Below are positions 31,052 to 38,967 of a stretch of 64,000 nt of DNA, in pieces (the first letter of the stretch is position 1; each line of letters begins with the position of its first letter). The stretch is from a virus (Duplodnaviria; Caudoviricetes): the IMG/VR virus record IMGVR_UViG_3300035208_002115. One strand, written 5' to 3'. A program made the position numbers and the translations under genes. The notes under the pieces are model-generated. The model searched no databases and was not told where the DNA came from. It worked only from the letters and a program-made list of their open reading frames with translations.

Positions 31052-32026
31052 TTAAATTTCAGGGCAAGGTAGTGATTTATGTTTAGAACTCTTAAATTTT
31101 ATCTCAGGAAAAATATAAGATACTGTTATTTCATGTGTTCCAGATGTTGAACCATATAAATTTGAAATTATAAAATCATAAGAATACCCAACATGAAAAT
31201 TATCCATTCTAAGACCAACCATACCAATTATTGCATCTGGATTAACTTTATTTATATTTTCAAAAATTGGAAAACCTCTATACCAAATACCAAATGTAAT
31301 TGGTTTATATTCCCAATACACACCTAAATCTAATTGATTGTAATTTCCCTGTCGTTTATATAAAAATGTTAAATAATAATAATTTGAATTTTTAAATACG
31401 TTTGGATTAGTAGATAATTTTAAACCTCCAAAAAATTTATATTGTATGGGAAGTCTGGAACTTTCTCGTGCAGTCAACGCATATTCGGGACGTAAAAGAT
31501 GGTCAGTAGACAGACCAGTCCAAAATTTATTACCATATATAATCCAACCTGAAGAAACATCGAAAAACTTAACTGTCGTTATAGGAGTCTCAATTGTACC
31601 ACCCGAATGTGTTTGTATTTGGTCATTGAATATTAATTTAAAAAAATCAACACCTATTTGTGTGTAATTTCCTTGTAACCCGAATGTTGAATAAACATTT
31701 CCACGAATATGTATTCTGTAAGAATATATTATATTTGCAGAATATGTATTATATGTTTCATAACCAGCAGCATCACCAACAAATAAAGCACCAATACCAC
31801 TATTAAATTTATCAAAATATGTATCAAAAGATGCACTGTATGTATTATAATTAACCAGACCCATGTATTGGTTTCGATAATTCATAAAAAGTCGTGGTGC
31901 ATTATCAGTACCAGCAAATGATGGTGATAAATATAATTTATTCGCATAGTACTGTGAGAATTGTGGTTCTTGACAGAATATAGATATATTAATAAAAAAT
32001 ATTAAAATACTAATAAGATATTTCAT
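31052..32026 (-). CDS. PorP/SprF family type IX secretion system outer-membrane beta-barrel
   Basis: Signal peptide; QEPQFSQYYANKLYLSPSFAG, NYRNQY, GYSYDFIISNL...SGTHEITVSY, LPCPEI C-terminus. Confidence 0.92.
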   Translation of the reverse strand: MKYLISILIFFINISIFCQEPQFSQYYANKLYLSPSFAGTDNAPRLFMNYRNQYMGLVNYNTYSASFDTYFDKFNSGIGALFVGDAAGYETYNTYSANIIYSYRIHIRGNVYSTFGLQGNYTQIGVDFFKLIFNDQIQTHSGGTIETPITTVKFFDVSSGWIIYGNKFWTGLSTDHLLRPEYALTARESSRLPIQYKFFGGLKLSTNPNVFKNSNYYYLTFLYKRQGNYNQLDLGVYWEYKPITFGIWYRGFPIFENINKVNPDAIIGMVGLRMDNFHVGYSYDFIISNLYGSTSGTHEITVSYIFPEIKFKSSKHKSLPCPEI

Positions 32027-32124: not shown

Positions 32125-32448
32125 TTAAATCAGTGAATTGATTTTAGTTACATATTTTTCTTTTGGATTAGCACCAATTATTCTGTCTACTACTTCACCA
32201 TCTTGTATAAAAAGTACAGCAGGTATATTTCGTATACCATATTTTTCTGCAACGAATCCTAAATCATCAACATCACATTTTGCAACCACTATATCATCAC
32301 CAAATTCTTCGGCAAGTGAATCTATAATAGGAGATACCATTCTACATGGGCTACACCATTCTGCCCAGAAATCTATTATAGTTAATTTATCACTATTAAT
32401 AACTTCATTGAAATTACCCTCTGTAATTGTTACAACCTTTTCACTCAT
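32125..32448 (-). CDS. trxA: thioredoxin
   Basis: DFWAEWCSPCRM, YGIRNIPA. Confidence 0.93.
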   Translation of the reverse strand: MSEKVVTITEGNFNEVINSDKLTIIDFWAEWCSPCRMVSPIIDSLAEEFGDDIVVAKCDVDDLGFVAEKYGIRNIPAVLFIQDGEVVDRIIGANPKEKYVTKINSLI

Positions 32449-32516
32449 AATTAATAATTCTTTTTTTCAGTGAACGATAAAATGTTTTGTTGGTTGCAGA
32501 TTATAATAAAATTTTG

Positions 32517-32589
32517 AGAGATAAATTGGATTCGAACCAACGTCCTCGGCTTGGCAAGCCGATGCACTAACCAACTGTGCTATTATCTC
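32517..32589 (-). tRNA. tRNA-Gly(GCC)
   Basis: Cloverleaf; anticodon arm TCGGC-TTGCCAA-GCCGA; U73. Confidence 0.9.
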
Positions 32590-32595
32590 GAAAAG

Positions 32596-32666
32596 AATTC
32601 CCACTGGGAGTCGAACCCAAATTGTGGGTTTAGAAAACCCGTGTTCTTCCATTGAACTATGGGAAC
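32596..32666 (-). tRNA. tRNA-Arg(TCT)
   Basis: Anticodon loop TTTCTAA; T arm TTGGG-TTCGACT-CCCAG; C27.A43 mismatch, U73. Confidence 0.8.
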
Positions 32667-32672
32667 ATATTG

Positions 32673-32744
32673 TATCTTCACTGGGAGTCGAACCCAAATT
32701 TCAAGTTTAGGAAACTCACGTTCTGTCCATTGAACTATGAAGAC
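32673..32744 (-). tRNA. tRNA-Arg(CCT)
   Basis: Anticodon arm TGAGT-TTCCTAA-ACTTG; near-duplicate of the adjacent Arg(TCT) gene. Confidence 0.85.
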
Positions 32745-32825
32745 GTTTTATTTACTGTCAGAATTTGAGTAAACAGTAAAAAAATAATTTTTTGATGTTT
32801 GGATATTATTTTTGTTTATAATAAT

Positions 32826-33341
32826 TTATTTAACTTTAATCTGAAAATTATGTTTAATAATTAACTGTCTTAGATGAATAATCAAAGTTTTTAAAAATAT
32901 GTTAACTATCTTATCAAAATTATCTATAACTTCTCTATCATAAATAAATGCATTATTTATTTTATTTATATCTAATAACGTGTTAAAGCATTTTTTAAAA
33001 ATTAAATAAATATTAACTTCAATTTCATCTATTTTATAATAACCAAGTTCTAATATTTTACATTTTAATTCATTCAGATATTCTTTCTCAATTTCTTCTT
33101 GTATAATATAAAAAATTTCTATAATATTTATATCAGTACATTCATCGACCAAACCAACGAAAAAAGAAACATCGTTAAATAATTTATCATTTAAAGTTGT
33201 AAATATTTTTTGATAGTCAATTTCTTTATTAAAACCATAAATTTTTAAATTTGGGCTTTTATCGAGGTTACAATAAATTTTATTGTTATTGTTATCGAAT
33301 CTAACTGGGGGTTCTTCTTCTATCAAATCCATTATACTCAT
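32826..33341 (-). CDS. hypothetical protein within the tRNA array
   Basis: 171-aa ORF. Confidence 0.6.
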   Translation of the reverse strand: MSIMDLIEEEPPVRFDNNNNKIYCNLDKSPNLKIYGFNKEIDYQKIFTTLNDKLFNDVSFFVGLVDECTDINIIEIFYIIQEEIEKEYLNELKCKILELGYYKIDEIEVNIYLIFKKCFNTLLDINKINNAFIYDREVIDNFDKIVNIFLKTLIIHLRQLIIKHNFQIKVK

Positions 33342-33359
33342 AATATATATATTTTTTAT

Positions 33360-34022
33360 TTAATTAGTCATATTATATTTTTGTCTATTCTTTCTACCAT
33401 TACCTTTATTAGCACCTTTATATGTTGGTGTTAAACTATGACAATTTGGACATATTAAATCTAAATTTTCTTCTTTATTATTTAAATAATTACCATCTAT
33501 GTGTTCAACTTCAAGTGGTGTGTTTCCAGTATAAAGATTTTTTTCAGACCACCCACATCTACTACATCTGTTATTAAATTTAATAAATAAATATCTAATT
33601 ATATGTAATGATATTTGATATTTACCTCTTAATCCTGACACCATATTCTTTTTCCACTTTTCAATGTAAATTAAATATGCATTATAACTACCATCAAATT
33701 TATTATTTACCTTTTTATCAATTTTAATATTAATTGTTTTTCTTTTCTTGTTATTAAATGTAGCAGAACATCTACATGAACAAAATTTTCGCTTATTACA
33801 TTTTAAATCTTTTATTTCTTCTCCACAATTTAAACAAAATTTAATTTCATTACAATTTATGTGTTTATAATCTGATGATTTATATCCATTTTTTTTCAAT
33901 TTTTCTCTTACACTTCTTGGTGTTTTATTTAAAACGATTCCAATTTCATTATATGAATACCCAGATAATAACAAATTAATTGATTTTTGTAATTCTTCAT
34001 TTCCCCACTTTAACATATACAT
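33360..34022 (-). mobile_element. free-standing HNH homing endonuclease inside the tRNA array
   Basis: N-terminal HTH, CLNCG..KFCSCRCS zinc finger, CSRCGW...LEVEHIDGNYLNNKEENLDLICPNCHSLT. Confidence 0.88.
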
Positions 34023-34116
34023 TTTTATTAGTATATATTAAAATAGAGCGTAACAAAATAGTTGAATATTATAAAATTGCTGTTTTCCAACTTTTCAACT
34101 ACTCGTTATTATTTTA

Positions 34117-34182
34117 TTGACTCTAAAAGAATTGAACTACATCGATATATAATGTTATATACTATCCATTACATTAAGTTAA
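34117..34182 (-). pseudogene. possible heavily decayed tRNA remnant
   Basis: Minus strand has D-arm-like TGTAATGGATAGTAT and T-loop-like GTTCAATTC at tRNA spacing; stems lost. Confidence 0.3.
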
Positions 34183-34187
34183 TTAAG

Positions 34188-34258
34188 AGCATCCTATTGG
34201 ACTCGAACCACATTTCCAAATTACAAATTTGGCACTTTACCATTAAGTTATAGGATGC
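34188..34258 (-). tRNA. tRNA-Thr(TGT)
   Basis: Acceptor GCATCCT/AGGATGC; CCAAA-TTTGTAA-TTTGG. Confidence 0.85.
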
Positions 34259-34281
34259 ATTATAATATTAAATTTAATTCG

Positions 34282-34358
34282 TGGAACTTGTGGAGAACGA
34301 TTCCACCTGCTTTTCTCTGTGCAAGAGAGACAACCACTCCAATGCAGTCCCAAGCCCC
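34282..34358 (-). tRNA. tRNA-Ala(TGC), non-canonical D and T loops
   Basis: G3.U70, A73; TCTCT-CTTGCAC-AGAGA; T loop ATCGTTC. Confidence 0.8.
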
Positions 34359-34375
34359 ATTAATTTAAAAATTAG

Positions 34376-34448
34376 TCGAAAGTGTCCGACTCGAACGGCA
34401 TCTAAATGTCCCAAACATCTTATGTTACCAAATTACAACACACTCTCG
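34376..34448 (-). tRNA. tRNA-Pro(TGG)
   Basis: C1-G72, A73; AGATG-TTTGGGA-CATTT. Confidence 0.85.
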
Positions 34449-34461
34449 ATATTCATTTTTG

Positions 34462-34532
34462 CTGACCTGAAAAGACTCGAACTTCTACAACAACATCCAG
34501 AGTGTTGGGTGCTACCATTACACCACAGGTCA
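34462..34532 (-). tRNA. tRNA-Gln(CTG)
   Basis: U1-A72, G73; CAACA-CTCTGGA-TGTTG. Confidence 0.88.
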
Positions 34533-34535
34533 AAA

Positions 34536-34624
34536 TGGTCGGGAAAGAAGGATTCGAACCTTCGAGAGGTTACCCCACTCGCTTCCAGGGCGAGACCGCT
34601 ACCTGACTACGGAGCTATTTCCCG
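34536..34624 (-). tRNA. tRNA-Pro(TGG) with long variable arm and C33
   Basis: CGGGAAA/TTTCCCG-ACCA; CTCGC-CCTGGAA-GCGAG; variable region TGGGGTAACCTCTC. Confidence 0.8.
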
Positions 34625-34632
34625 ATATATTG

Positions 34633-34719
34633 CTGCCCCCGTAGGACTCGAACCTACAAGCCATGATTATGGCATCAGCTCCAAAGGCTGACGTGTTTAG
34701 CCAATTCCACCAGAGGGCA
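34633..34719 (-). tRNA. tRNA-Gln(TTG) with long variable arm and Leu-like D arm
   Basis: TGCCCTC/GGGGGCA-G; TCAGC-CTTTGGA-GCTGA; variable arm TGCCATAATCATGGCTT. Confidence 0.82.
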
Positions 34720-34729
34720 ATTTAAAAAG

Positions 34730-34803
34730 TGGAGAAGATGGGAGTCAAACCCACGACCTTCTGAGTGCAAATCAGACGCTCTATTCAACTGAGCTACATC
34801 CCC
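34730..34803 (-). tRNA. tRNA-Ala(TGC)
   Basis: GGGGATG acceptor with G3.U70; TCTGA-TTTGCAC-TCAGA; T loop TTTGACT. Confidence 0.88.
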
Positions 34804-34806
34804 ATT

Positions 34807-34885
34807 TGGTGCGAGTACAGGGATTCAAACCCTGAACCTACTGATTGGAAGTCAGTCGCTCTAATCAATTAGGAGCTACACTCGC
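34807..34885 (-). tRNA. tRNA-Gly(TCC)
   Basis: GCGAGTG/TACTCGC-ACCA; ACTGA-CTTCCAA-TCAGT; A73 and a D loop lacking GG. Confidence 0.82.
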
Positions 34886-34937
34886 AAATTTGATGTGGTA
34901 AAAATATACCACATCGTATTTCAATATAAAACCATTT

Positions 34938-35010
34938 CCAACATGTCAAAGAACTCGATTATATCCCTGTGGGGTTATAATCTTGGAATATATCCTTGCA
35001 GGGTTATATT
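34938..35010 (-). promoter_or_regulatory. rrn-type antitermination site: two boxB-like hairpins followed by boxA
   Basis: Minus strand: AATATAACCCTGCAAGGATATATT, ATTATAACCCCACAGGGATATAAT, then AGTTCTTTGACATGTTGG. Confidence 0.6.
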
Positions 35011-35016
35011 TTTCTG

Positions 35017-35089
35017 AGCCGATAGTAGGCTACGACCCCACGACCTTCATCTTACAAGGATGTTGCTCTACCAACTGAGCTATATCAGC
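35017..35089 (-). tRNA. tRNA-Thr(TGT), non-canonical T loop
   Basis: GCTGATA/TATCGGC; ACATC-CTTGTAA-GATGA; T loop GTCGTAG. Confidence 0.82.
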
Positions 35090-35105
35090 ATTTCAAAACA
35101 CGTAT

Positions 35106-35141
35106 AAAACAAAAAATCCACTCAACTTTTACGCTGAGTGG
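35106..35141 (-). terminator. attenuator terminator immediately upstream of the tRNA array
   Basis: Minus strand CCACTCAGC-GTAAAA-GTTGAGTGG-ATTTTTTGTTTT. Confidence 0.85.
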
Positions 35142-35172
35142 GTTTTTGTAACTTCCTTTTAATGAGAAGTGG

Positions 35173-35307
35173 CTATATATTTGGTGAAATAAAGCCGATA
35201 TACAAAATACACTCAGCGTACAAACCTCTTGGTTGTGCTGTTCTGCCCTGACCTGCTCCCTGTTGGGGGGCGGTTGTTGCTGTCGTGTATGTTGTGTTCC
35301 TCATCAT
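35173..35307 (-). CDS. leader peptide (Thr/Ala/Pro/Gln/Gly/Arg-rich) of the tRNA-array attenuator
   Basis: Manual translation MMRNTTYTTATTAPQQGAGQGRTAQPRGLYAECILYIGFISPNI*; contains antiterminator strand TACGCTGAGTG (35210-35220), complementary to terminator 5' arm CACTCAGCGTA (35130-35140). Confidence 0.85.
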   Translation of the reverse strand: MMRNTTYTTATTAPQQGAGQGRTAQPRGLYAECILYIGFISPNI

Positions 35308-35400
35308 AATTAAAAAAATATCTTTGTTTCAGTTATATATTACAACAAAAATGTCGTTTTTTTCCAATTCTTTAACCTACTTTTAATAGGAATTATTTTG

Positions 35401-35431
35401 CAAATGTAATTATACTTACGATAAAAACAAA
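35401..35431 (-). promoter_or_regulatory. Bacteroidota sigma-A-type promoter for the leader/tRNA transcript
   Basis: TTTG-N19-TACATTTG fits the -33/-7 consensus; a second AATATATA element lies at 35334-35341. Confidence 0.7.
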
Positions 35432-35443
35432 TAAAAGTTTAAA

Positions 35444-35950
35444 TTATTTTATAGGTCTTATACTAAAAGCTTGAACTTCATCATGATTAAATACATAATT
35501 TAATGCTTTGTGAAATGTTAATTCTGCACCATGAGTCACAATATCACCATCATTAGATTTTAATTCTTCTGGTAAATTATCATTATATAAAGCCTCACCA
35601 TTAACAACAATTGTAATAGCGACTGGTGCATTACTAAATTCCAATTTATCTTTTAGATTGACCAGTTTTCCAAAAACAGACCCACTATCTTTGGTATAAT
35701 CATAAACGAATAAAAATGTGTTTCCGATTTCATTTGCCAAGTTTTGTGGAATAGCAGAATCAACACCTGTATAATTTTTACCATATGCCATTATCATAAG
35801 GTCGCCTTTTGTAAGGTGTCCATTGTTATATTTAATAAAAAAATTAAACATAGAATCCCAGTCATTCTTATTTTTATCTCTAACTATTTCGTCATCCTGA
35901 GTATAATCCTCATTCATTTTAAATGATTCATATGTTTTTAAATGTTTCAT
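35444..35950 (-). CDS. putative virion-packaged protein with CTS-like N-terminus
   Basis: Likely start ATG 35950: MKHLKTYESFKMNE. Confidence 0.7.
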   Translation of the reverse strand: MKHLKTYESFKMNEDYTQDDEIVRDKNKNDWDSMFNFFIKYNNGHLTKGDLMIMAYGKNYTGVDSAIPQNLANEIGNTFLFVYDYTKDSGSVFGKLVNLKDKLEFSNAPVAITIVVNGEALYNDNLPEELKSNDGDIVTHGAELTFHKALNYVFNHDEVQAFSIRPIK

Positions 35951-35960
35951 TTTTATATTT

Positions 35961-36302
35961 TTATTTTTTAACATTATTAAATAAGTCATCAATAGCATCT
36001 ATTAACATGTTTTGTTCATTATTATCAAGTTCGAAATGTTGAGTTAAATCCATATTTTTAGAATCAACTTGAATAACCAATGTTTCATTAGATTTCCAAG
36101 CAGTTACTATTTGGGTATCATGTGACATTTTATATTTAGTTATTTCACCAATCATAATATCTATTAAATTATCTAAATCTTCAATAACAATTTCAGCTAT
36201 ACTCTCATTTTTATTAATTGTTATTGTCCCAGCATCTTCATTAACATTAAAATAAATGGTAGGTGTGCCATACCTTTCGAACGTTTTAACATGATTCATC
36301 AC
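35961..36302 (-). CDS. putative virion-packaged protein with CTS-like N-terminus
   Basis: MNHVKTFERY. Confidence 0.65.
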   Translation of the reverse strand: MMNHVKTFERYGTPTIYFNVNEDAGTITINKNESIAEIVIEDLDNLIDIMIGEITKYKMSHDTQIVTAWKSNETLVIQVDSKNMDLTQHFELDNNEQNMLIDAIDDLFNNVKK

Positions 36303-36370
36303 ACTATACTAATTTTTTAAACTTAGCCCCACAGCCCTATAATCGAAGATTATAGCCTTATAGACCTTCA

Positions 36371-36793
36371 TTATATATATTCACTTACTGCACCAATTAA
36401 TGATTTTTTAACATCTTCGGAATCTATTTCAGTCCAATCCGAAAAATCGTCAACTATATCTTCATCTTCATCATCATTACTACTTCTATTTTCTGGATTA
36501 GTTGTTGTAACTTCATCTGTATCATAACAATAATAAATAGTATCAACATCGAGTTCATCTAATAAATCTCTCAATTCGGCTAATGTTTTATCCCAACCTT
36601 TATAATCTTCGTATTGAGAACTGGCATAAACACCGCCTTCTTGAATATCTAAATTTAACATAGCAGCCAGTTTTTTAATTTTAACCAGTTTTTCTTGGTC
36701 TAATTGTTCTTTATAAATAGATATCGCCTTGACTACATTCTTACTATAATCTTCGTTCAATTTAAACGTATTATATGTTTTTAAGTGTTTCAT
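36371..36793 (-). CDS. acidic protein with CTS-like N-terminus
   Basis: MKHLKTYNTFKLNE. Confidence 0.7.
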   Translation of the reverse strand: MKHLKTYNTFKLNEDYSKNVVKAISIYKEQLDQEKLVKIKKLAAMLNLDIQEGGVYASSQYEDYKGWDKTLAELRDLLDELDVDTIYYCYDTDEVTTTNPENRSSNDDEDEDIVDDFSDWTEIDSEDVKKSLIGAVSEYI

Positions 36794-36809
36794 TTTTTTA
36801 TTTTTATTT

Positions 36810-37340
36810 TTATGATATCAAATCAAGCCATCTTTTATATGAGCCTTTATCAGCACCATTTACAAAAGAATCAACGTTTCTTGCATAATTCCAATCATGT
36901 GAATTAATTTTTCCTTCAATTTCTTCATCAGATATTTTTTTCACATCAGATGCCACGAAATATTTATTACCAGCCGAATCTGTATAAAATTCATAACTAT
37001 ATTTAAGATAACCATCTGGTTTATTAAACTGAGAATATGTTGGGTATTCAGTCCAAACATAAAAAAGTGGGTTATCATCAAAATCTATATCAGAATCTAC
37101 AACAAAAACATCACCAATTTTTCTTTCCCCTTTCACATATGGTTCGTGTTCTTTATTAAATGGTATTTCATCTTGAATATCATCTTGAATATCATCTTGA
37201 ATATCATCTTGAATATCATCTTGAATATCATCTTGAATATCATCTTGAATATCATCTTGAATATCATCTTGAATATCATCTTGTATTTCATCTTGTATTT
37301 CATCTTCTTGAAAAGATTCGAACTTTTTTAAATATTTCAT
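36810..37340 (-). CDS. protein with CTS-like N-terminus and (D/E)IQD repeat
   Basis: MKYLKKFESFQE followed by about 12 tetrapeptide repeats. Confidence 0.7.
   Translation of the reverse strand: MKYLKKFESFQEDEIQDEIQDDIQDDIQDDIQDDIQDDIQDDIQDDIQDDIQDDIQDEIPFNKEHEPYVKGERKIGDVFVVDSDIDFDDNPLFYVWTEYPTYSQFNKPDGYLKYSYEFYTDSAGNKYFVASDVKKISDEEIEGKINSHDWNYARNVDSFVNGADKGSYKRWLDLIS
37165..37308. repeat. 12-bp coding tandem repeat (ATATCATCTTGA)n
   Basis: About 12 units encoding DIQD/EIQD. Confidence 0.95.
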
Positions 37341-37363
37341 TTTTATATTTTTATTTTTATATA

Positions 37364-37741
37364 TTATTTTTCTAAATCATAAAATCCCATATTATCAACC
37401 ATAAACATACCATCTTTGTTTCTTATGATATCACCTACTGACATTGATGTGTGTCCTACATCTTTTGATTTTAATATATCATTAGTTGTTTTACCTTCTG
37501 ACCAAAATTCACCCTGCATTTTATTATATATTATATCCAAATCTAAAGTGTCAAATTTACCGATAAATGCATGAGTCGCTTCTAAATTATTTGGGTCTGG
37601 TAATTCGACACCATCTGGTAAATTATCTGAACCAAGAATATAATCTCTGAAATATTTATTTTTAACATACCACACATCAGATGTTACACCTTCATCAATT
37701 GATTCGTTAATAAAATCTAAAAAATTCTTCACTGTTTTCAT
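37364..37741 (-). CDS. YodL-like domain protein with CTS-like N-terminus
   Basis: MKTVKNFLDFINES; LDIIYNKMQ...GHTSMSVGDII...FMVDNMGF. Confidence 0.65.
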   Translation of the reverse strand: MKTVKNFLDFINESIDEGVTSDVWYVKNKYFRDYILGSDNLPDGVELPDPNNLEATHAFIGKFDTLDLDIIYNKMQGEFWSEGKTTNDILKSKDVGHTSMSVGDIIRNKDGMFMVDNMGFYDLEK

Positions 37742-38145
37742 TATGTATATTTTAATTTATTATAACCATAATATATATCAACCACTCTACATTTTAATGT
37801 TCCAGTCACAGATTGGTTGTATGACGTTGTTGCGTTTGGTTTTTTTAATATGGCTGTTAACCAAATAATATCACCACGTTTCATTTCTTTTGCGACAATA
37901 TCCGAAGATAAATTAAAACCACCAGAAAAAGCTTCCAGTTTTTTTATTTCATCTTCATCTTTTATAATATCTATTATTTGAACTATTTCAACAGGCTCAG
38001 TAATCTTTTCATATTCTCCATTATCTAATTTCCTTAAAACAGTAATATCATCAGCTAACTGATTATATTCTCCTTTTTTGGTTTGTTTCTTAGCCTGTTC
38101 CTCTTTAAACTTGTGGAAACTTTTTGTTATTTTATCGTTTTCCAT
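37741..38145 (-). CDS. hypothetical late protein
   Basis: MENDKITKSFHKFKEE start; KRGDIIWLTAIL...LKCRVVDIYYG. Confidence 0.65.
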   Translation of the reverse strand: MENDKITKSFHKFKEEQAKKQTKKGEYNQLADDITVLRKLDNGEYEKITEPVEIVQIIDIIKDEDEIKKLEAFSGGFNLSSDIVAKEMKRGDIIWLTAILKKPNATTSYNQSVTGTLKCRVVDIYYGYNKLKYT

Positions 38146-38967
38146 TTAATGACCTTTTAATTTATTTAAAGTTTCTTTATTTTGTTTAACATATTTATTC
38201 AACCCAGATGCTGCTGATTGCATACCATGTAATAAAATTGCATATGATTTATCTTGTTTCCATGCTAAATCATCATTTATATCCACCATTAATTGTTTTT
38301 CTGTGGCTTCTTCTACATTTTTAACTACCTCAACATACTTTAAATTATATTGTTTAATTAACTCATCGTTTGTTCCACCAACAGATGCATTTAATTTTAA
38401 GTTTGATGGTATATCTTTTAATCTATTAATCCAATATTTTAATGATTTGGTGTATGTATAAAATATAGTATTTGGTAGTTCTTTAGCAACTTCAACCCAT
38501 GCATCAAAATATTCCTGAGAGAAGAAATCTCCACTTTCATGTAATCTAAACACTGGAACACCGAATGGAAATTTATAAACAATAGAACGTTTTATTAAAC
38601 TCGTCATTTCATCGACACCTTTACAAGTTTTTAATAATTCAAAATTTGACATATTTCTTTTTCTTGTATTCGGAAATGTTTTTTCCTGATTAGCAGCGTA
38701 ACAAGTAAAATCCCCGAACGTTCTTAATTTAGGTCTACCAGTTTCTTTATCATCTTGAACTCTTGATTTACAATCTTTAGCAAACGGACATGTATAACCT
38801 GCTGGAAGTGATAAATATGGATGTGCTATTTTAGCATTTCCAGTAGCAGTTATATTTAAAAGACATACATCTTTAGTTTTACTTTCAGGTTGTTCTTCAG
38901 TTTGTTTTGTTTTCAAATGCGAAAACGGGTCGAATTCGTTATATTCCAGTATTAAATATCGCCTCAT
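38146..38967 (-). CDS. GP88-like (radical-SAM-related) phage protein
   Basis: LSLPAGYTCPFAKDC...CYAA, FRLHESGDFFSQEY, FYTYTKS, NLKLNASVGG. Confidence 0.75.
   Translation of the reverse strand: MRRYLILEYNEFDPFSHLKTKQTEEQPESKTKDVCLLNITATGNAKIAHPYLSLPAGYTCPFAKDCKSRVQDDKETGRPKLRTFGDFTCYAANQEKTFPNTRKRNMSNFELLKTCKGVDEMTSLIKRSIVYKFPFGVPVFRLHESGDFFSQEYFDAWVEVAKELPNTIFYTYTKSLKYWINRLKDIPSNLKLNASVGGTNDELIKQYNLKYVEVVKNVEEATEKQLMVDINDDLAWKQDKSYAILLHGMQSAASGLNKYVKQNKETLNKLKGH

Follow-up and report, generated by a model that had tools for sequence, protein, structure and literature searches.

Leader Peptides Matched to Downstream tRNA Arrays Point to Ribosome-Mediated Attenuation of tRNA Genes in a Megaphage

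Introduction

The reason why phages carry tRNA genes has been open for >50 years (PMC10264068). The locus described here poses the question in a particular form. Within a 64,000-nt window of the virus record IMGVR_UViG_3300035208_002115 (the window being the whole stretch of DNA analyzed, C1:573370-637369 of a 675,678-bp, 27% GC single-contig record), an array of 12 tRNA genes is preceded by a short open reading frame (ORF) and an intrinsic terminator. What do a short ORF and a terminator do in front of tRNA genes? An earlier note on this DNA proposed that they form an attenuator of the his/thr/ilv type that senses the same six tRNA families that the array supplies. This reading is supported by leaders that match their arrays, by co-variation of leaders with array partitions, by an alternative RNA pairing and by the position of the switch in fold predictions. 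To judge from the sequence, the tRNA cassettes of this phage are likely to be classical ribosome-mediated transcription attenuators whose output is the tRNAs whose shortage they sense (probability roughly 0.9), with each tRNA set probably made only when ribosomes read the matching codons slowly. Positions without a prefix refer to the window.

Composition and Alternative Pairing of the Cassette B Leader

The cassette in the window, termed cassette B, has the following leader elements.

35173..35307, minus strand: leader ORF of 44 codons (from the ORF list and composition; homologs in four relatives with in-frame sensor indels)
35224..35301, minus strand: sensor run, leader codons 3-28 (24 of 26 codons for Thr, Ala, Pro, Gln, Gly or AGR-type Arg)
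35201..35220, minus strand: antiterminator 5′ strand, leader codons 30-36 (all five homologs keep the core CTGAGTG)
35130..35150, minus strand: antiterminator 3′ strand, which takes in the terminator 5′ arm (from complementarity)
35106..35141, minus strand: intrinsic terminator, 31 nt past the leader stop codon

The leader ORF lies between the promoter region and the tRNA genes and is enriched in codons tied to the array. As described previously, codons 3-28 comprise seven Thr, four Ala, two Pro, four Gln, four Gly and three Arg codons. These six amino acids account for ~22% of phage codons, so that their enrichment across codons 2-28 has a binomial p of ~2e-13, and base-shuffling of the sensor stretch gave p ~1e-5. 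Genome-wide, leader B is the short ORF richest in its six amino acids, the runner-up reaching 15 of 26. The claimed correspondence at codon level holds in part: the list of codons in the earlier note omitted ACC (Thr), GCC (Ala) and CCC (Pro); no tRNA with G34 is present in the array for these three, and its U34 tRNAs would read them only by extended wobble. The absence of CGN codons is genuine, yet weak on its own, as AGA and AGG already make up ~70% of phage Arg codons; the AGR-only usage gains weight because leader C, one of two sister leaders described below, pairs CGC with Arg-ACG.

The intrinsic terminator, with a GC stem of nine pairs (35118-35141, -14.2 kcal/mol) and a U-tract extending to 35106, precedes the first tRNA gene. 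The proposed 11-nt match also was recovered: 35210-35220 is the exact reverse complement of 35130-35140, which comprises 9 nt of the terminator 5′ arm and 2 loop nt, and the pairing extends through 35201-35207 with 35144-35150. The antiterminator duplex has a predicted energy of -21.9 kcal/mol compared to a shuffle mean of -9.3 (p 3e-4) and is mutually exclusive with the terminator. The whole leader fold scores z -4.4 against shuffles, with the terminator formed. No cis-regulatory Rfam family matched leader B, and T-box riboswitch features (the stem I specifier loop and the T-box antiterminator bulge) gave no Rfam match up to E 5. The DNA of the leader locus is identical in two assemblies of public sequencing runs (0 differences), which confirms the DNA only. 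The runs that match best come from landfill and groundwater metagenomes and may be the source.

Sister Cassettes in the Same Genome

A check suggested by the earlier note was whether leaders at the other tRNA clusters of the genome co-vary with tRNA content. Both remaining clusters possess composition-matched leaders.

C1:131354-131440: leader A, 28 codons, with promoter pair and terminator as in cassette B
C1:647973-648092: leader C, 39 codons, with promoter pair and terminator as in cassette B

The tRNA genes fall into three clusters that split the amino acids and jointly cover all 20: cluster A serves Leu, Asp, Asn, Met, Glu, Tyr and Cys; cluster B serves Thr, Ala, Pro, Gln, Gly and Arg; and cluster C serves Ser, Trp, Ile, Val, His, Phe, Lys and Arg-ACG. 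The sole tRNA gene apart is an ochre-type suppressor with a UUA anticodon (C1:37754-37827, minus strand), which lies outside the attenuated clusters and might act on the stop codons of leaders. No array serves an amino acid that is absent from its own leader. The leader A sensor has 16 of 16 codons in its own set and none in the sets of B or C, and 22 of 23 sensor codons in leader C belong to set C. Over the three clusters 62 of 66 sensor codons matched, and none of two million random partitions performed as well (p 5e-7). Counts in a fixed window of codons 2-18 were 16, 14 and 16 of 17, and base-shuffling of leaders A and C gave p ~1e-5 each, as it did for leader B. The Arg codon class tracks the anticodon, the sole Arg codon in leader C being CGC and those in leader B being AGA and AGG. 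The stop codon lies 32-33 nt from the terminator in cassettes A and C. A short ORF ends just ahead of 20 of the 105 predicted terminators; when these ORFs are ordered by their pairing with the terminator 5′ arm, the three leaders take the first three places. A genome-wide scan revealed no fourth cassette, including none ahead of the RtcB gene.

Two other features were observed near these clusters. A gene for an RRXRR/HNH IscB-like protein with a CRISPR array is located directly upstream of cluster A (C1:128709-130880), and a PTH2-family peptidyl-tRNA hydrolase gene is situated ~2.5 kb from leader C (C1 about 650600-651000).

Leaders Follow Array Partitions in Related Megaphages

The source phage encodes a Gp23-like capsid protein and a terminase. 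Its T4-like capsid protein shares 50-62% identity with those of LR756501, LR756502, LR745206 and LR756504, published genomes of 634-735 kb with which landfill megaphages >600 kb have been grouped as Mahaphages with predicted Bacteroidetes hosts (PMC12607003). Leaders of the type described above are present in these four genomes, in seven related megaphage contigs and in one metagenome contig, and they follow tRNA partitions that differ between phages, as the proposed co-variation required. Leaders in relatives were located blind to composition, as a terminator ahead of a tRNA with an ORF ending shortly before it; where two candidate ORFs qualified, the longer was taken. Statistical tests were applied to 25 leader-array pairs from five phages, with the closest duplicates omitted; the remaining kinship raises the null. 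From codon 6 onward, 261 of 377 leader codons were in the set of the adjoining array, compared to 80 under permutation (p < 1e-5). Leaders represented 97% of array amino acids compared to 36% when permuted (p 5e-6), and the duplex of a leader with its own terminator averaged -17.1 compared to -9.8 kcal/mol (p 1e-5). All three values exceeded those of every permutation. The last matching codon was 1-4 codons before the antiterminator in all 25 pairs, the gap between stop codon and terminator was 22-36 nt in 23 of them, and Arg was split by codon class in most cassettes, AGR occurring with Arg-UCU or Arg-CCU and CGN with Arg-ACG. Codons 2-7 of the leaders are mostly Asn, Ile, Thr, Leu or Lys irrespective of the array, probably reflecting an initiation constraint.

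Individual genomes illustrate the pattern. In a 345-kb contig (65% capsid identity), Val has joined a Pro/Thr/Gly/Arg/Ala block and Gln is found in an Asp/Cys/Leu/Ile/Glu/Asn/Met block; the leader of the former contains five Val codons but lacks Gln, which is present instead in the leader of the receiving block. The four deposited huge genomes include a Gln-only block after a run of seven Gln codons, a Lys-only block after four Lys codons and nested leaders inside long arrays, the leaders being present but unannotated. One leader in LR756501 was missed at first, and inspection found the expected Tyr/Asn/Asp/Cys/Ile run. Other apparent mismatches also were resolved by inspection: a missed Asn-GUU was located, as was a tRNA-Arg(UCU) whose anticodon is interrupted by a probable group I intron (L055:6070-6360, relative G005). 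A ‘Tyr’ tRNA call in the array of one relative is more likely to be a Thr-UGU with C33, and the single Tyr codon in its leader was not counted as a match. Degenerate motif matches in viral contigs L095-L105 and at least nine of 14 metagenome matches were discarded as chance or repeats. An exact-pattern search, which says little, did not detect the sensor motif in bacterial genomes.

Leader B has homologs in three viral contigs and in a single metagenome contig. Sensor indels among them are multiples of three, and the antiterminator core CTGAGTG is unchanged across the five homologs, though it is read in two frames. Only eight of 47 columns of the peptide are invariant. A nascent-peptide arrest leader of the TnaC or ErmCL type does not fit these five sequences, which have no conserved C-terminal arrest sequence and whose 3′ part shifts frame while the RNA is kept. 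Terminator stems vary between homologous cassettes and the antiterminator strand varies in step, including one clean compensatory change of C-G to U-A in the Ser/Arg leaders of LR756502 and LR745206.

Further observations in the relatives concern other features. LR756501 has an L7/L12-like ribosomal protein ORF (about 187700-188500, minus strand; likeness by eye) between a leader-terminator and its tRNA block, which would place it under the same attenuator as the tRNAs. In G003, ~1.2 kb of sequence (L051:1700-2900) is GC-richer and apparently non-coding; it contains a tRNA-like element with a CUA anticodon and may be a large structured RNA. Three relatives (L042:2730, L055:2185 and L060:849) encode a tRNA-Gly with an ACC anticodon (A34), which is unusual for bacterial-type tRNAs.

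Fold Predictions Place the Switch Where the Sensor Run Ends

Folding with a ribosome mask, which the earlier note had suggested, was modeled by allowing only RNA downstream of the ribosome to fold, with the terminator 5′ arm emerged and the 3′ arm incomplete. The 12-nt downstream footprint of the ribosome is an assumption of the model. Under these conditions the antiterminator is lost at the end of the sensor run. The antiterminator probability in leader B is 0.89 with the A-site at codons 2-27, 0.52 at codon 28 and ~0 at codons 29-43, and in three of its four homologs the switch also is at codon 28, the longer one switching at codon 31. Predicted switch codons are 18 for leader A and 24 for leader C, and the sensors end at codons 17 and 24, respectively, compared to 28 in leader B. 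Thus in the model a stall on sensor codons frees the antiterminator, and passage of the ribosome blocks it. The full-length fold of leader B contains a pairing of the anti-antiterminator type, which the antiterminator outcompetes in the partial transcript.

Promoters of Cassette B

Two promoter elements precede leader B.

35401..35431, minus strand: Bacteroidota sigma-A-type promoter (-33 TTTG, -7 TAnnTTTG; consensus from PMC9723704)
35334..35365, minus strand: phage-type promoter-like motif, GGAAAAAA..GAC..TTTT..AATATATA, between the host-type promoter and the leader ORF

The host-type promoter is placed as originally reported, with TTTG at 35428-35431, a spacing of 19 nt and TACATTTG at 35401-35408, though as the main promoter it is less likely than the phage-type motif. 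It also occurs ahead of both sister leaders, but is absent ahead of leader B in two close relatives. The phage-type motif is kept ahead of all five homologous leaders and also precedes the major capsid gene. The sequence AATATATA[AC] within 80 nt upstream of ORF starts accounts for 104 of 264 occurrences compared to 10.8 expected, an approximately ten-fold enrichment. By these patterns the phage-type motif probably is the main promoter of cassette B.

A Model for Attenuation and Points That Weigh against It

No RNA polymerase beta subunit of phage origin was found in the source genome, and host transcription-translation coupling therefore applies. Leader-peptide attenuation has been reported upstream of amino-acid operons in Flavobacterium, a Bacteroidota genus (PMC9723704), and the his mechanism is described in PMC11805395. 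In the proposed sequence of events, host RNA polymerase would start upstream of the leader with a ribosome trailing. If Thr, Ala, Pro, Gln, Gly and AGR-type Arg codons are decoded at normal speed, the ribosome would cross codons 28-44, covering or splitting the antiterminator strand, and would come to rest at the stop codon, 31 nt short of the terminator; the hairpin would form and the tRNAs would not be made. The narrow gap between stop codon and terminator is consistent with a ribosome that waits at the stop codon during synthesis of the terminator by polymerase. A ribosome lagging anywhere in codons 2-27 instead would leave codons 30-36 to pair with the emerging terminator 5′ arm, permitting read-through into the tRNAs, and the boxA-like site described below then probably protects the untranslated transcript. 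New tRNAs may relieve the stall in a negative feedback loop. The three cassettes would tile the genetic code, so that functional tRNA supply is monitored family by family. We infer translation of the leader, kinetic switching in vivo and the feedback from this arrangement. The genes downstream of leader B are tRNA genes, an HNH gene and a 171-aa ORF rather than biosynthesis, transport or synthetase genes; with an output of this nature, the cassette is a variant of the attenuator and not a member of a named operon family.

Several points count against this interpretation. No compensatory change was detected in the family of leader B itself, where the helix core is invariant. Not every tRNA gene in the relatives lies behind a leader: suppressor tRNAs, a few isolated tRNAs and one of the clusters in the 345-kb contig lack one. 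Internal promoter motifs within cassette B may allow Arg-CCU, Arg-UCU and Gly-GCC to bypass the switch. When the full terminator stem is available, equilibrium folding favors the terminator in several homologs at any ribosome position; as the terminator wins at equilibrium once its stem is complete, the switch must be kinetic, with the antiterminator acting as a kinetic trap. In folding that permits base pairs to span the ribosome, no clean switch was obtained, and the antiterminator persists even when the ribosome occupies the stop codon. Finally, the look-alike Streptomyces leaders of ilvB and leuA failed codon-swap tests (PMC1262725), which is why the probability assigned to attenuation stops at the value given above.

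The tRNA Array and Neighboring Genes

The remaining features of cassette B are listed in order of transcription.

35016..35089, minus strand: tRNA-Thr(UGU) (ARAGORN, Rfam)
34946..34954, minus strand: boxA-like GTTCTTTGA in a conserved structured spacer (motif enrichment)
34807..34885, minus strand: tRNA-Gly(UCC) (ARAGORN, Rfam)
34729..34803, minus strand: tRNA-Ala(UGC) (ARAGORN, Rfam)
34632..34719, minus strand: tRNA-Gln(UUG) with long variable arm and Gln-type acceptor end, U1-A72 and G73 (ARAGORN and inspection)
34536..34624, minus strand: tRNA-Pro(UGG) with long variable arm, C1-G72/A73 and unusual C33 and A37 (ARAGORN and inspection)
34461..34532, minus strand: tRNA-Gln(CUG) (ARAGORN, Rfam)
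34375..34448, minus strand: tRNA-Pro(UGG) (ARAGORN, Rfam)
34281..34358, minus strand: divergent tRNA-Ala(UGC), G3-U70 kept, low score (lowered threshold)
34187..34258, minus strand: tRNA-Thr(UGU) (ARAGORN, Rfam)
33360..34039, minus strand: HNH endonuclease gene (33360-34022) inserted into the array; the AATATATA motif that precedes it (34032-34039) is a possible internal promoter
32826..33353, minus strand: 171-aa ORF with no Pfam family and a AATATATA motif upstream at 33346-33353
32672..32744, minus strand: tRNA-Arg(CCU) (ARAGORN, Rfam)
32595..32666, minus strand: tRNA-Arg(UCU) (ARAGORN, Rfam)
32516..32589, minus strand: tRNA-Gly(GCC) (ARAGORN, Rfam)

All 12 tRNA genes reported previously were retrieved, 11 by ARAGORN at default settings and the second Ala-UGC only at the lowered threshold; Rfam did not detect the latter. 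The last three tRNA genes lie 1.4 kb further on, past the HNH gene and the two internal promoter-like motifs. Each amino acid is served by two unlike tRNA bodies. The long arms of tRNA-Gln(UUG) and one tRNA-Pro(UGG) are class-II-like, long-arm Gln, Pro and Thr tRNAs also occur in relatives, and the Thr-UGU of one relative apparently shares C33 with the long-arm tRNA-Pro(UGG). The spacer between the first two tRNAs (34886-35015, minus strand) is kept in relative G001 despite loss of the first tRNA, and contains two short repeated hairpin units, the boxA-like 9-mer and a 9-bp hairpin. Eight of 20 genome copies of the 9-mer are inside the three tRNA clusters (p 1e-10), and in related loci it occurs 26 times on the tRNA strand and not at all on the opposite strand. 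We take GTTCTTTGA to resemble the boxA of rrn operons and thus to be a candidate rrn-type site for Nus antitermination. A segment just before the promoter motif of the HNH gene (34120-34147, minus strand) resembles the 5′ fragment of a tRNA gene and is a possible insertion remnant.

Elsewhere in the window, a gene for a PorP/SprF type IX secretion membrane protein (31052-32026, minus strand; Pfam E 7e-58) adjoins a thioredoxin gene (32125-32448). The PorP/SprF gene and the TAnnTTTG promoters agree with a Bacteroidota host. The ORF at 36810-37340 (minus strand) contains ~11 tandem four-residue repeats rich in Asp, Ile and Gln. An N-terminal MKHLKTYESF-like motif is common to several unrelated ORFs (35444-38967, minus strand, and many others), and other ORFs of the phage have RxxK[IL]xx[IL] at the C-terminal end.

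Alternative Explanations and the Purpose of the Switch

The ORF could have arisen incidentally, as a by-product of structured RNA with higher GC content or of degenerate sequence resembling tRNA, with a terminator that merely limits tRNA expression. Codons for Gly, Ala, Arg and Pro are GC-rich, and frame +1 of the leader B sensor stretch also has 15 of 23 codons in the array set. However, the AT-rich sister leaders match their own AT-rich codon sets with the shuffle probabilities noted above, sensor indels keep the frame, and the way leaders track reshuffled arrays in the 25 pairs already contradicts a by-product, so that this explanation is scarcely credible. It is less far-fetched, but still improbable, that the leader and helices are real and are regulated by an RNA-binding protein, by Rho or by the peptide itself and not by codon-specific stalling. 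The non-classical Streptomyces leaders provide a precedent (PMC1262725) and equilibrium folding alone yields no clean switch, but the peptide sequence is unconserved while its composition follows the array, and the distance from the end of the sensor to the antiterminator is exactly one ribosome footprint. If codon-specific attenuation is accepted, the cassettes might report amino-acid starvation, the phage reading host nutrition and responding to poor charging with more tRNA. What a classical attenuator measures is charged tRNA, so that starvation and tRNA loss look alike to it (PMC11805395), and the match between leader and array is mostly at the amino-acid level. Yet the output is tRNA and not a biosynthetic enzyme or synthetase, and the division of Arg into AGR and CGN classes in most cassettes indicates that tRNA species are sensed. 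Starvation is an unlikely trigger because more tRNA, left uncharged, does not cure a lack of amino acid; as the product is tRNA, the useful signal is a shortage of working tRNA. The usual trigger accordingly would be loss of, or competition for, host tRNAs.

Sequence alone cannot tell whether host nucleases or late-infection demand is responsible. We tentatively favor counter-defense, at somewhat under even odds: the leaders would sense that anti-phage effectors have cut or modified host tRNAs, and would respond by releasing resistant substitutes in the form of duplicate anticodons on divergent, often long-arm bodies. At the same level of confidence, the cassettes may constitute code-wide surveillance in which codon-family attenuators detect host tRNAs destroyed or disabled by immunity and switch on only the matching resistant block. 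Destruction of host tRNAs and rescue by phage tRNAs are established, T5 tRNA-Lys countering PARIS (PMC11464382) and T5 tRNAs countering retron effectors (PMC11555353), and the anticodon-nuclease hypothesis for phage tRNAs is set out in PMC10264068. The phage also encodes RtcB and a CCA-adding enzyme, the array has its two unlike bodies per amino acid, and leader B has 10 G/C-ending codons compared to 4.4 expected (p 0.007), as if several host isoacceptors were sampled. Against counter-defense, neither sister leader showed this excess (p 0.76 and 0.22), a raised number of decoding classes in the leader, as expected from sampling of all isoacceptors, was not significant (p 0.09), and no host defense system can be named for the source phage. 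Moreover, the promoter motif shared with the capsid gene is equally fitting for demand in late infection. A demand homeostat is a plausible if less probable competitor, in which late translation of 27% GC phage mRNA or decay of host tRNAs drains particular families that the cassettes top up. General supply control is suited by coverage of all 20 amino acids in three blocks and by the capsid-type promoter motif, and nested leaders in relatives would give finer control. It leaves the odd tRNA bodies and the reshuffling of partitions between lineages unexplained, and the phage proteome makes little use of the amino acids that block B serves.

Relation to Known Systems and Implications

Enterobacterial attenuators can be multivalent, as in thrL (Thr/Ile) and ilvL of ilvGMEDA (Ile/Leu/Val); hisL, trpL, pheL and leuL are further examples. 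The phage cassettes share with them a short ORF rich in sensed codons, mutually exclusive antiterminator and terminator, and a ribosome trailing polymerase (his: PMC11805395). They differ in their tRNA output, in the breadth of sensing (six to eight amino acids by each leader, the entire code by the three cassettes together), in being phage-borne, and in an antiterminator strand inside the ORF with the stop codon near the antiterminator apex. Unlike in his, the anti-antiterminator of the phage leader is predicted to be weak, and by this folding prediction an untranslated leader may read through. Attenuators of synthetase genes (E. coli pheST; the Streptomyces trpS and leuS candidates, PMC1262725) likewise top up a component that restores charged tRNA, but concern one amino acid, a protein output and the chromosome. 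T-box riboswitches resemble the cassettes in a terminator/antiterminator switch governed by tRNA status. In contrast to the cassettes, they bind uncharged tRNA directly and have no leader ORF. Counter-defense phage tRNAs similarly form arrays able to replace damaged host tRNAs; the available portions of PMC11464382, PMC11555353 and PMC10264068 describe tRNA action, and array sensing or conditional transcription was not found in them. Mahaphages (PMC7162821; landfill members PMC12607003) have, like the source phage, a T4-like capsid, large tRNA sets and predicted Bacteroidota hosts, and attenuation is not mentioned in the main text of either report. The earlier note knew of no such attenuator, and none on tRNA genes was found in a literature search that included the main text of four phage papers and had most subscription papers outside its coverage. 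Switches of this type are known, but their application to tRNA genes, in phages and across the code, is new as far as the literature was searched.

A leader that spells out the cargo of its array implies tRNAs made on demand when decoding fails. Codon compensation, decay of host tRNAs and anti-nuclease rescue become separable by which stress opens which cassette. The reach of a textbook mechanism, known from biosynthetic enzymes, is widened to include tRNA genes as well as viruses, and the leaders explain the grouping of tRNA arrays in megaphage genomes. They also help to assign odd or missed tRNAs, the intron-split Arg and the missed Asn having been found where a leader demanded them, and the cassettes offer ready-made multi-codon sensors of translation stress for Bacteroidota. 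If the surveillance reading is true, leaders and array partitions would be a readable record of which tRNAs are attacked together by Bacteroidota defenses.

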